A stretch of DNA of 4,746 nt from a virus (taxonomy: Duplodnaviria; Heunggongvirae; Uroviricota; Caudoviricetes). The stretch's first letter is position 1, and the number at the start of each line of letters is the position of its first letter. Shown here piece after piece: positions 160 through 4,746 of this stretch. Both the position numbers and the translations under genes were made by a program. The stretch lies in IMG/VR virus record IMGVR_UViG_2675903595_000009; one strand, written 5' to 3'. Below the pieces are notes generated by a model. That model was not told the DNA's origin. It was given only the letters and a program-made list of their open reading frames with translations, and searched no databases.

Positions 160-182
160 TTGTAACGCTCGCGGCGTTACAA
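160..182. repeat. Inverted repeat TTGTAACGC-N5-GCGTTACAA (core GTAACGC-N5-GCGTTAC); putative binding site for a dimeric protein, possibly an origin iteron
   Basis: Read directly: 9-bp perfect arms at 160..168 and 174..182 with a 5-bp spacer. The same 7-bp core arms recur at 371..389. Confidence 0.5.
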
Positions 183-370
183 AAAGTGCAATAGATCGCA
201 TCACTTTTATGTCTGGTTTTGCTGATGCGTTAATTCAGGTTGGATGGCTGGTCGAAAATGACGGAGGGCTTTCTCTACCTAACTTTGAACGTCATAACGG
301 AAAAAGCTCTAAAAAAAACGGGCGGTTACAAACGAGCGAGTAACAAAAATACGCGAACTGAAACGAAAAG

Positions 371-389
371 GTAACGCTGCCAGCGTTAC
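371..389. repeat. Second copy of GTAACGC-N5-GCGTTAC (a 19-bp near-perfect palindrome, GTAACGCTG-C-CAGCGTTAC); an extra GCGTTAC half-site lies at 406..412
   Basis: Read directly; identical core arms and spacer length to the 160..182 site. Both lie inside the replication-initiator reading frame, as lambdoid ori iterons lie inside gene O. Confidence 0.5.
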
Positions 390-414
390 ACAAACGGATC
401 AAAAAGCGTTACCA

Positions 415-432
415 GAGGAAGAGGAAGAGGAA
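415..432 (+). repeat. (GAGGAA)x3 hexanucleotide tandem repeat encoding an acidic EEEEEE stretch (frame 1) in the initiator linker
   Basis: Read directly: gaggaagaggaagaggaa. Confidence 0.85.
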
Positions 433-788
433 GATCTAAATACTGATCTCCCCCTCGCCAAAAACGAGCGTCTAAAAAATTCGAGCCGGAGGCTATTGAG
501 CTGCCCGATTGGTTGCCGGAAACACTCTGGCATGAGTGGGTCCGGTTCAGACAGGCATTGCGAAAACCGATTCGAACGGAGCAGGGCGCTAACGGGGCGA
601 TACGGGAACTGGAAAAATTCCGTCAGCAGGGTTTTACACCTGAGCAGGTGATTCGACACAGCATCGCCAATGAATACCAGGGCCTGTTCGCGCCGAAAGG
701 TGTTCGGCCTGAGACGTTGCTCCGACAGGTTAACACCGTCTCGTTGCCGGACAGTGCGATCCCGCCAGGCTTCAGGGGGTAACGGACC

Positions 789-2661: not shown

Positions 2662-3348
2662 ATGACCCCAATAAACATATTTATGACAGTTGCTGATTTC
2701 AAACGGCCCAAATTGGAGCTCCCAAACGGGGCAAACAAACTACTACTGCACTCTTGCTGTGCTCCATGTTCCGGTGAGGTGATGGAGGCGCTTCAGGCCT
2801 CGGGAATCGACTACACCATCTTTTTCTACAACCCGAACATTCATCCTCAGAAAGAGTATTTAATTCGTAAGGATGAGAATATTCGCTTTGCTGAACAACA
2901 CGGCGTGCCGTTTATTGATGCTGATTACGACACAGACAACTGGTTTGAACGAGCCAAAGGAATGGAATGGGAGCCCGAACGAGGGATCCGTTGCACCATG
3001 TGTTTTGACATGCGTTTTGAGCGGACAGCGCTGTACGCCGCTGAAAATGGTTTCAGTGTGATCAGCAGTTCACTGGGCATTTCACGCTGGAAAAATATGC
3101 AGCAGGTTAACGACTGTGGGCGGCGAGCCGTCGCGCATTATCCGGGCATGGTGTACTGGGATTATAACTGGCGCAAGCAGGGCGGCTCGTCCCGTATGAT
3201 TGAAATCAGCAAGCGCGAAAAATTCTATCAGCAGGAATATTGTGGCTGTGTGTATTCTCTGCGCGATACCAATCTACACCGCAAATCTCAGGGACGCCCT
3301 CTTATCAAAATTGGTCAACTCCACTACGGTAAAGAAGAGAAGGAGTGA
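2662..3348 (+). CDS. queH: QueH-like epoxyqueuosine reductase (DUF208 family), 228 aa; looks intact
   Basis: Family hallmarks are present: [46 protein letters not shown] and [10 protein letters not shown] (Cys pattern CCxxC ... CxxC ... CxC). Alternative in-frame start at 2683. No obvious SD before either ATG. Confidence 0.8.
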
Positions 3349-3527: not shown

Positions 3528-3731
3528 ACATGTAGGTTAGCCTCTTACATGCCGAAAGGCAAGGAGAAGCAGGCTATGAAGCAGCAAAAGGCGATGTTAA
3601 TCGCCCTGATCGTCATCTGTTTAACCGTCATAGTGACGGCACTGGTAACGAGGAAAGACCTCTGTGAGGTACGAATCCGAACCGGCCAGACGGAGGTCGC
3701 TGTCTTCGTAGACTACGAATCCAGGAAGTAA
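3519..3731 (+). CDS. mok: Mok-like reading frame (in-frame N-terminal extension of hok), 70 aa
   Basis: ATG at 3519 with a GAGG SD about 8 nt upstream. The N-terminus MLCTCR... resembles E. coli MokC (MLNTCR...) from memory; it shares frame and stop with hok. Confidence 0.55.
   Translation: MLCTCRLASYMPKGKEKQAMKQQKAMLIALIVICLTVIVTALVTRKDLCEVRIRTGQTEVAVFVDYESRK
3534..3562 (-). promoter_or_regulatory. Candidate sok promoter on the minus strand (-35 TTGCCT = plus 3557..3562; 17-bp spacer; -10 TAACCT = plus 3534..3539)
   Basis: Hexamers read from the reverse complement; the position inside the mok 5' coding region matches known hok/sok loci. The hexamers are only a moderate match to consensus. 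Confidence 0.25.
3576..3731 (+). CDS. hok: Hok/Gef-family type I toxin (HokD/RelF-like), 51 aa
   Basis: ATG at 3576 with SD AAGGAG (3561..3566). The translation MKQQKAMLIALIVICLTVIVTALVTRKDLCEVRIRTGQTEVAVFVDYESRK has the family's single transmembrane helix and conserved Cys; the first ~44 residues match E. coli HokD as I recall it, and the C-terminal 7 residues differ. Confidence 0.85.
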   Translation: MKQQKAMLIALIVICLTVIVTALVTRKDLCEVRIRTGQTEVAVFVDYESRK

Positions 3732-3852: not shown

Positions 3853-3871
3853 TTGTTTATTTCCGGTGAAT

Positions 3872-3899
3872 TTGATTCGCGCACCTTCGCAGATAGAAT
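3872..3899 (+). promoter_or_regulatory. Putative sigma70 promoter for the downstream small-gene operon (-35 TTGATT at 3872..3877, 16-bp spacer, -10 TAGAAT at 3894..3899)
   Basis: Hexamers read directly; they are the same two hexamers as the putative hok promoter. Confidence 0.3.
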
Positions 3900-4306: not shown

Positions 4307-4660
4307 ATGGCACATATACAACTGGTCAAACAAACCTCTTCCGGATTACTTCTCCCGGCGACGCCGGAGAGTTGCGATTTTCTGCATCAAATCAAAATAG
4401 GTGAGTGGATACACGCAGACTTTAAGCGTGTGTGTAACTACGCATTCCACAAGCGTTTTTTCAAACTCCTGCAACTGGGTTTCGATTACTGGACTCCGGT
4501 CGGTGGGGCGATCACGCCTCGCGAACGAAAACTGGTGTCCGGTTTCGTTGATTACCTGTGTGAATCAGTAGGCCGGGAACATACGCCAGCTCTGAGCGAA
4601 GCCGCAGAGCAATTGAGGTGTACTGGCAATAGCGGACACTACCATTTGTTCTTTTTTTAA
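4307..4660 (+). CDS. Hypothetical protein, 117 aa from the ATG at 4307 (the ORF track's 4265 start is a TTG overlapping the upstream stop); the C-terminus may be affected by a T7 homopolymer
   Basis: SD GGAGA (4296..4300) 6 nt before the ATG; the ORF ends ...HYHLFFF* inside the T7 run 4652..4658. Confidence 0.5.
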   Translation: MAHIQLVKQTSSGLLLPATPESCDFLHQIKIGEWIHADFKRVCNYAFHKRFFKLLQLGFDYWTPVGGAITPRERKLVSGFVDYLCESVGREHTPALSEAAEQLRCTGNSGHYHLFFF

Positions 4661-4671
4661 GCAGCCATCTG

Positions 4672-4746
4672 ATGATATTTTTCCCTGAAGGCTGCCGGGG
4701 AGATATTCCCCAGACGAGAGTGACGACGCTGACGATTGTAGAAAAT
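4672..4746 (+). CDS. Possible 5' partial ORF (MIFFPEGCRGDIPQTRVTTLTIVEN...) running off the window, or the shifted continuation of the previous gene
   Basis: Frame 1 is open from 4633 to the window end; ATG at 4672; no clear SD. Confidence 0.2.
   Translation, partial: MIFFPEGCRGDIPQTRVTTLTIVEN

Follow-up and report, generated by a model that had tools for sequence, protein, structure and literature searches.

Inverted-repeat sites inside the YdaU-like initiator gene of Rac-like prophages as a candidate replication origin

Results

Initiator pseudogene and replication module of the prophage remnant

The DNA analyzed here, a stretch of 4,746 nt from the viral record IMGVR_UViG_2675903595_000009 (hereafter the window), is a fragment of a Rac-like lambdoid prophage. 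From position 105 on it matches E. coli genomes at 98–99% and the phages vB_EcoS-666R9 and 'Rac' MN652886 at 93%, and positions 1–104, the end of an IS600 element (IS3 family), are 100% identical to copies of this element in thousands of E. coli genomes. Positions ~4610–4746 are also 100% identical to the end of an IS600 copy, so that an IS600 element flanks the remnant on either side, as is typical of Shigella and of IS-rich E. coli. Homology to ydaU-type genes starts at 105, and positions 105–782 of the plus strand constitute a YdaU-like replication-initiator pseudogene of the PHROG 2509 type, laid out as a winged-helix-like N-terminal domain, a disordered linker and a DnaT-like C-terminal domain. 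The IS600 end at 1–104 takes the place of the 5′ ~100 nt of the gene, together with a palindrome that lies upstream of it in intact relatives. Alignment of the window copy with three intact 789-nt genes revealed two further lesions on the plus strand: a run of A8 at 312–319, where intact genes have A6, creates a +2 frameshift, and a 10-bp deletion of TCCCCCTAAA at 447–448, between short direct repeats, shifts the frame a second time. An initial annotation of the window had placed the repeats described below inside an initiator gene; the sequence is indeed that of a YdaU-like initiator, but with the IS600 end, the two additional A residues and the 10-bp deletion this copy is a pseudogene, homologous to PHROG 2509 but truncated and frameshifted. 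An intact initiator gene is present in the same prophage of E. coli FDAARGOS_944.

The partner gene of the replication module, ydaV, encodes a DnaC-like helicase loader and occupies 789–1221 of the plus strand in the ORF list, from where it runs into a masked segment (bases 1222–1661, given as N). It is annotated 'ydaV: ATP-binding protein' in near-identical genomes, and NCBI annotates the matched gene pair as 'phage replication initiator YdaU family protein' and 'ydaV ATP-binding protein'. Genes for DUF977, QueH, hokD and DUF1367 follow downstream. The starts of ydaV and of the DUF977 gene are 889 nt apart in the window and 761 nt apart in the near-identical prophage of FDAARGOS_944, which implies ~128 extra bases under the mask. 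The gene for QueH (epoxyqueuosine reductase) lies at 2662–3348 and a hokD-type type I toxin ORF (MKQQKAMLIALIVICLTVIVTALVTRKDLCEVRIRTGQTEVAVFVDYESRK) at 3576–3731 downstream of it; the near-identical E. coli prophage has annotations for both. Lying in a prophage remnant disrupted by IS600, the window copy of the module is a relic and is probably inactive now; its remaining sites could act only with an initiator supplied in trans by a co-resident prophage.

Palindromes, half-sites and a purine tract within the initiator sequence

The whole window contains exactly two copies of GTAACGC-N5-GCGTTAC, at 162–180 and 371–389, against an expectation of 0.01, and none of 200 dinucleotide-preserving shuffles gave two. 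GCGTTAC alone occurs six times (0.31 expected), five of them within 162–412. The initial annotation had located both copies of this repeated 7-bp-arm core with its N5 spacer correctly and had rightly judged them unlikely to arise by chance. Palindrome 1 (cluster A, 160–182) reads TTGTAACGC-TCGCG-GCGTTACAA, with the 9-bp arms that had been ascribed to it, and overlaps the codons for C-N-A-R-G-V-T in a surface loop. Palindrome 2 (cluster B, 371–389), in the part coding for the disordered linker, reads GTAACGCTG-C-CAGCGTTAC; a 19-bp palindrome had been noted there and called near-perfect, but the 19-mer is perfect, with 9-bp arms flanking the central C.

Three further half-sites, all on the plus strand, accompany the palindromes. 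The terminal GCGTTAC(C) at 406–412, which had been correctly listed, lies 23 bp (two helical turns) past the right arm of palindrome 2. Two sites had been missed alongside the main ones: an isolated GCGTTA at 227–232, which close enteric relatives have as well, and a decayed GTAATGC with one mismatch at 150–156, 12 bp upstream of the next half-site, which reads GTAACGC in Rac MN652886 and phage 666R9. Conversely, a 'related GGTTACA' assigned to 322–328 is actually found at 324–330 and is not among the conserved sites. Two bases past the last half-site begins an all-purine tract of 21 nt (AGAGGAAGAGGAAGAGGAAGA, 414–434, plus strand), which includes (GAGGAA)3 at 415–432 and is a candidate DNA-unwinding region. 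The window thus holds two perfect palindromes and three further half-sites as dyad-symmetric repeats inside the initiator ORF, and such repeats are likewise found in ~80 homologs.

Domain architecture of the intact initiator

A search of Pfam returned no match for the intact initiator protein. The intact homolog matches PHROG 2509, 'replication initiation protein', at 3.9e-89, and its match to the 'O-like' PHROG 678 is limited to the C-terminal part. Residues 170–262 match the C-terminal domain of DnaT (2ru8_A, E = 1e-4; 9zbt_D, E = 3e-4), and NCBIfam returned only a sub-threshold match to the DnaT tail (NF002770, E = 0.006). The last residues, ...PDSAIPPGFRG (window 750–782), align with the extreme DnaT C-terminus in NF002770; a tail of this type also occurs in K-12 YdaU and in phage ST11-OXA245phi3.2, and may be a short partner-binding tail. 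Homologs in TL-2011b, ZX5 and BUCT554 are annotated 'primosomal protein I', yet have only the N-terminal half in common with the window type. DnaT itself, the primosomal protein I of the PriA replication-restart pathway, resembles the initiator in the C-terminal domain (residues 170–262) but has no origin-binding N-terminal domain and no sequence-specific sites, whereas the initiator fuses the DnaT-like module to a domain predicted to be site-specific.

The AF2 model of the protein comprises a compact N-terminal domain (residues 11–95; helices and a β hairpin), a disordered linker (96–160) and a helical C-terminal domain, with a mean pLDDT of 66.7 and values of 70–90 inside the domains. Palindrome 1 encodes a low-pLDDT loop (residues 52–57) that tolerates a 4-residue insertion, and palindrome 2 and the purine tract encode the disordered linker.

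Selection on the half-sites as DNA

Homologs were collected from one genome per species with an alignment of the N-terminal domain as query, which yielded 78 distinct genes from Enterobacterales, Pseudomonas, Xanthomonadales, Burkholderiales, Planctomycetota and Verrucomicrobiota. The equivalent of palindrome 1 was found in nearly all of them, with frozen GGT, AAC and GTT codons, and the position of palindrome 2 is kept across phyla, at gene nt ~+345 to +400; phages of Xanthomonas, Ralstonia and Pseudomonas present the same site picture. At the position of palindrome 1, 55 of the 78 genes encode G-N-A-x-x-V-[TS]. Although these 55 homologs share only 40–70% amino-acid identity, the codons beneath the half-sites are GGT in 55/55, AAC in 55/55 and GTT in 53/55, and serine at the fifth position is AGC in 47/47, counts that are not independent events since the homologs are mutually related. 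Background usage in the same genes is 0.27 for GGT, 0.71 for AAC and 0.33 for GTT. Codon entropy is 0–0.26 bits under the half-sites versus 0.6–2.4 bits at further residues that at least 90% of the genes share, and all residues with an entropy of 0–0.26 bits sit under half-sites. The control residue Gly34, for instance, is encoded by GGC 21 times, GGA 20 times, GGG 8 times and GGT 5 times. Shared ancestry is an insufficient explanation for this pattern, because the flanking synonymous positions are saturated. Conservation in homologous initiator genes whose synonymous sites vary freely, on which the initial annotation had staked its proposal, is therefore what these 55 distant homologs with their frozen codons exhibit.

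The half-sites TAACGC/GCGTTA are present at 13.6/kb between gene nt 100 and 450 versus 0.49/kb, the chance value, in the other 226 kb, and their density peaks at 44/kb (nt 150–200) and 36/kb (nt 350–400). Neighboring half-sites are spaced at 11 bp (114 times), 12 bp (32 times), 22–23 bp (32 times), 33–34 bp (31 times) and 44–46 bp (seven times), that is, at multiples of ~11 bp that place them on one face of the helix. Many genes have three copies of TAACGC, then two of GCGTTA, then a purine tract, and a terminal xCGTTA[CG]C followed by the purine tract is found in 60 of the 78 homologs. In a set of 59 distinct close relatives, the 5-bp spacers vary while the arms show essentially no variation. 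Moreover, the array of cluster B is read in the (G/S)NA...SVT frame in most lineages and as VT...ALQ in others. Phages ST11-OXA245phi3.2, TL-2011b, BUCT554 and ZX5, whose N-terminal ~140 residues are ~63% identical to the window type, each carry exactly two perfect GTAACGC-N5-GCGTTAC palindromes, again 209 bp apart; here the second palindrome is read as GTA ACG C (V-T), versus xGT AAC GCx (x-N-A).

These data bear directly on the simplest alternative, that there is no function at the DNA level and that the repeats reflect the conserved peptide GNAxSVT, the low-complexity linker or chance. Palindrome 1 does overlap the conserved peptide G-N-A-x-x-V-T. However, synonymous positions are frozen only beneath the half-sites, the same DNA is read in another frame in other lineages, the peptide lies in a low-confidence loop with room for a 4-residue insertion, and 0.01 matches to the palindrome pattern would be expected by chance; we regard this explanation as having almost no probability. 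The codon and frame data indicate instead that the half-sites are under selection as DNA, apart from the protein that they encode.

The purine tract shows a similar bias. Family-wide, arginine in the tract is encoded by AGA in 68 of 69 cases, versus 44 of 857 elsewhere. The tract starts directly after the last half-site; A makes up 52% of it and purines 76%. By composition alone, then, an easily melted, A/T-rich and strand-asymmetric region adjoins the sites. An argument that the tract is read in several frames was dropped, because any reading frame of a 5-nt repeat yields the same peptide; the choice of arginine codons was considered in its place.

Structured RNA is another conceivable target of such selection, with the palindromes forming hairpins in the mRNA that act in stability, processing or translational pausing. 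The palindromes fold at −15.9 and −17.1 kcal/mol (z about −3.3), and their stems are kept while loops and spacers vary. Yet folding is inherent to any palindrome and does not discriminate, and the stems lack covariation, being invariant in sequence and not merely complementary. The unequal numbers of left and right half-sites, the tandem half-sites 12 nt apart in the same orientation and the lone half-sites cannot pair, and each genome has the same sequence at two or three places. Rfam contained no matching family, with only a chance-level match elsewhere in the stretch, and a terminator search gave one minus-strand hit, at palindrome 2 of the intact E. coli COL60J locus, which is within shuffle expectation. 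Hairpin function in the mRNA is accordingly very improbable in our assessment.

A further palindrome upstream of intact genes

Intact relatives possess a perfect TGTAACGC-N5-GCGTTACA palindrome that directly adjoins the Shine-Dalgarno sequence, 12–32 nt upstream of the ATG. In E. coli COL60J it reads TGTAACGC-TGCGA-GCGTTACA (3866–3886 of the extracted locus), and other intact relatives have equivalents; the window lost it to IS600. Half-sites are ~7-fold enriched family-wide at −100 to −1. This palindrome may be an autoregulatory operator or a third element of the origin, and it looks at least as operator-like as origin-like; the two roles are not mutually exclusive and can coexist.

The location of this palindrome raises the possibility that all the sites are operators only, through which the initiator would throttle transcription or translation of ydaU-ydaV while replication starts elsewhere. 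The perfect palindrome at the Shine-Dalgarno sequence and the enrichment just before the gene are in keeping with such a role, and there is a precedent in iteron plasmids, where dimers of Rep act at inverted repeats to repress the gene that encodes them. On the other hand, a crude promoter scan around the sites and the intact gene detected no sigma-70-like promoter, and most of the sites lie 150–400 nt within the gene, where up to five half-sites are arrayed in phase with the helix. Behind these arrays comes a purine tract, rich in A and enforced at the DNA level, for which an operator has no need. The upstream cluster, moreover, is limited to some lineages, whereas the internal clusters are nearly universal. 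A purely regulatory role is thus unlikely, though it deserves more weight than the RNA explanation.

Site specificity follows the N-terminal domain

Comparison of related initiators provided three natural domain swaps. First, YdaU of the K-12 Rac prophage is 85% identical over the C-terminal 119 residues, but its N-terminal half is an unrelated DUF1376 domain. GTAACGC palindromes are absent from the 5 kb searched around K-12 ydaU, and the gene carries its own GATGTTCAA repeats: in this one genome A[GC]ATGTTCAA occurs in 5–7 copies at gene nt ~+141, +228 and +352 to +448. Second, the Klebsiella phage BUCT711 has the C-terminal half in common with ST11-OXA245phi3.2 but an N-terminal domain that is only 33% identical, and in place of TAACGC palindromes it has GTCCGC-N7-GCGGAC at nt 66 and 354. 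Across 74 distinct genes of this sister family, GTCCGC-N7-GCGGAC takes the same two positions as the window-type palindromes, at gene nt 66 and 345/354, with up to 59 half-sites/kb and no TAACGC in the same regions. Third, TL-2011b, ZX5 and BUCT554 keep the N-terminal domain and the palindromes and have an unrelated C-terminal half. A homolog from a Vibrio phage has yet another palindrome. In the BUCT711-type genes the sites are then followed by the same AGAGAAGAG purine tract.

In the K-12 MG1655 gene (extract of the ydaU region of NC_000913.3, 2761–3078), the A[GC]ATGTTCAA copies lie at 2761, 2848, 2972, 3005, 3038 and 3050, and a further copy, at 3068, is inverted. The spacings are 33, 33 and 12, and the two-cluster layout is like that of the window type.

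A search of viral contigs with the palindrome pattern only, independent of any gene, gave 120 contigs, in 100 of which (83%) an ORF matching the N-terminal domain is no more than 400 nt away from the pattern. All 52 loci with at least two palindromes are at such an ORF, and two of these 52 have one further copy elsewhere on the contig. The other 20 contigs have single pattern matches, for which chance matches or contig edges are possible reasons. Taken together, the comparisons of these genes indicate that site specificity co-varies with the N-terminal domain of the initiator.

A different binder, such as a host factor or another phage protein acting in partition, packaging or repression, would need only to have its sites located inside the gene. 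Room for this idea is left by the weak assignment of the N-domain fold, for which a Foldseek match to 4pta (E = 0.64) offers weak support for DNA binding. But the motif tracks the N-terminal domain through three independent swaps while neighboring genes and the C-terminal domain change, and 83% of the pattern-only matches in viral contigs fall at the initiator gene. Hosts range from Enterobacterales to Planctomycetota and Verrucomicrobiota, making a common host factor unlikely. We therefore consider a binder other than the initiator improbable, more so than an operator-only role. A protein-binding function, which the initial annotation had called likely, gains support from the frozen codons, the use of two reading frames, the invariant arms and the co-variation with the N-terminal domain.

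Discussion

Based on these comparisons, we propose that the palindromes are probably binding sites for the N-terminal domain of the initiator and that, together with the tract at 414–434, they form a replication origin within the initiator's own gene. In this mechanism, the initiator would bind TAACGC/GCGTTA half-sites one helical turn apart, in two clusters ~200 bp apart and, in intact relatives, in a third cluster just upstream of the start codon. The bound initiators would then build a higher-order complex comparable to the O-some of phage lambda, and the adjoining A-rich, all-purine tract would melt. Finally, the DnaT-like C-terminal domain would bring in the host helicase DnaB with the phage-encoded, DnaC-like loader YdaV. 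We infer the firing of such an origin, and the assignment as an origin, by analogy with lambda. The initial annotation had left the choice between the prophage origin and an autoregulatory operator open; the gene comparisons favor initiator-linked binding sites, and it is the lambda analogy that points to an origin.

The lambda origin lies inside gene O, where four iterons adjoin a high-AT region of 39 bp; every iteron is a hyphenated inverted repeat of 18 bp to which a dimer of O binds (PMC6022878). In the O protein, a flexible linker lies between the N-terminal domain, which binds DNA, and the C-terminal domain, which binds P (PMC6022878). The window type is similar in several respects: its sites lie in the initiator's own gene, in the part coding for the N-terminal domain and linker; they have 18–19 bp of dyad symmetry with flanking A runs; an A-rich, purine-skewed region that by its composition should melt easily lies immediately downstream; and sites and N-terminal domain are swapped together as a module. 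The proteins are also arranged alike, with an N-terminal domain for DNA binding, a flexible linker and a C-terminal domain for recruiting the helicase-loader complex, both functions being predicted ones in the YdaU type. There are clear differences, however. The TAACGC core is unrelated to the lambda iterons; two clusters ~200 bp apart and an upstream one, built as convergent half-site arrays with 11–12 bp phasing, replace four adjacent iterons; and the C-terminal domain is DnaT-like and the loader DnaC-like, unlike lambda P. Membership in the lambda O family by homology was rejected: the initiator has no sequence similarity to lambda O and no Pfam match, and the core of its sites is unrelated. 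The kind of arrangement is one that is conceptually expected from lambda; the initiator family is distinct, widespread and without a Pfam match.

Iteron plasmid replicons provide a second point of reference. They too have helically phased initiator sites and an initiator with a winged-helix-like domain, and, like the intact relatives, a palindrome before the initiator gene with possible autoregulation. Beyond the weak Foldseek hint to 4pta, however, no homology to them was detected, and the window-type sites differ in lying within coding sequence, in a phage context and next to a gene for a DnaC-like loader. In a plasmid collection only two records with this initiator type were found, CP088505.1 (E. 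coli pE16EC1016-8) and NC_015459.1 (Pusillimonas sp. T7-7), both circular and 41–52 kb long; pE16EC1016-8 has no PLSDB replicon type and phage-like neighboring genes, and the two may be phage-plasmids or circularized phage genomes. As an argument for autonomous replication they were rejected, two records being too few.

The Rac prophage has been reported to contain an active origin, oriJ (PMC3945230). The K-12 Rac prophage is of the same type as the window prophage and has the same gene order (racR/cI-like, ydaS, ydaT, ydaU, ydaV), but the N-terminal half of its YdaU is unrelated and a different repeat takes the same relative positions. Identity of the window sites with K-12 oriJ was rejected, because K-12 ydaU lacks both the palindromes and any homology in its N-terminal half. 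Judged from their sequence and layout, the A[GC]ATGTTCAA repeats in K-12 ydaU are a candidate for the oriJ core. Plasmids based on oriJ are reportedly the subject of a study by Potrykus et al. (2000). We found no sequence-level description of the sites in the literature searched on oriJ, ydaU and Rac replication, which is no proof of absence.

A farther-reaching interpretation is possible but rather doubtful. The sites might represent an undescribed, ancient initiator-origin module whose recognition code is near-frozen in phages of Proteobacteria, Planctomycetota and Verrucomicrobiota. The code would consist of TAACGC half-sites every ~11 bp in two clusters and a purine tract enforced by AGA codons, the sites would dictate the peptide GNAxSVT, and relics may act in trans. 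Relic sites such as those in the window might then fire in trans or titrate the initiator of a co-resident Rac-like prophage, serving as incompatibility or interference elements.

If the proposed origin within the initiator gene is correct, it would allow origins to be predicted from sequence in a class of replication modules that is very widespread among temperate phages. This class includes Rac-like prophages of E. coli and Shigella, epsilon15-like and TL-2011b-like phages, and relatives in Pseudomonas, Xanthomonas, Ralstonia, Planctomycetota and Verrucomicrobiota, and its initiators are mostly annotated 'hypothetical', with no Pfam domain. It would also be a case of overlapping codes, in which the predicted binding sites of a protein constrain the protein's own coding sequence, and in which synonymous mutations could thus separate the function of the DNA from that of the protein.
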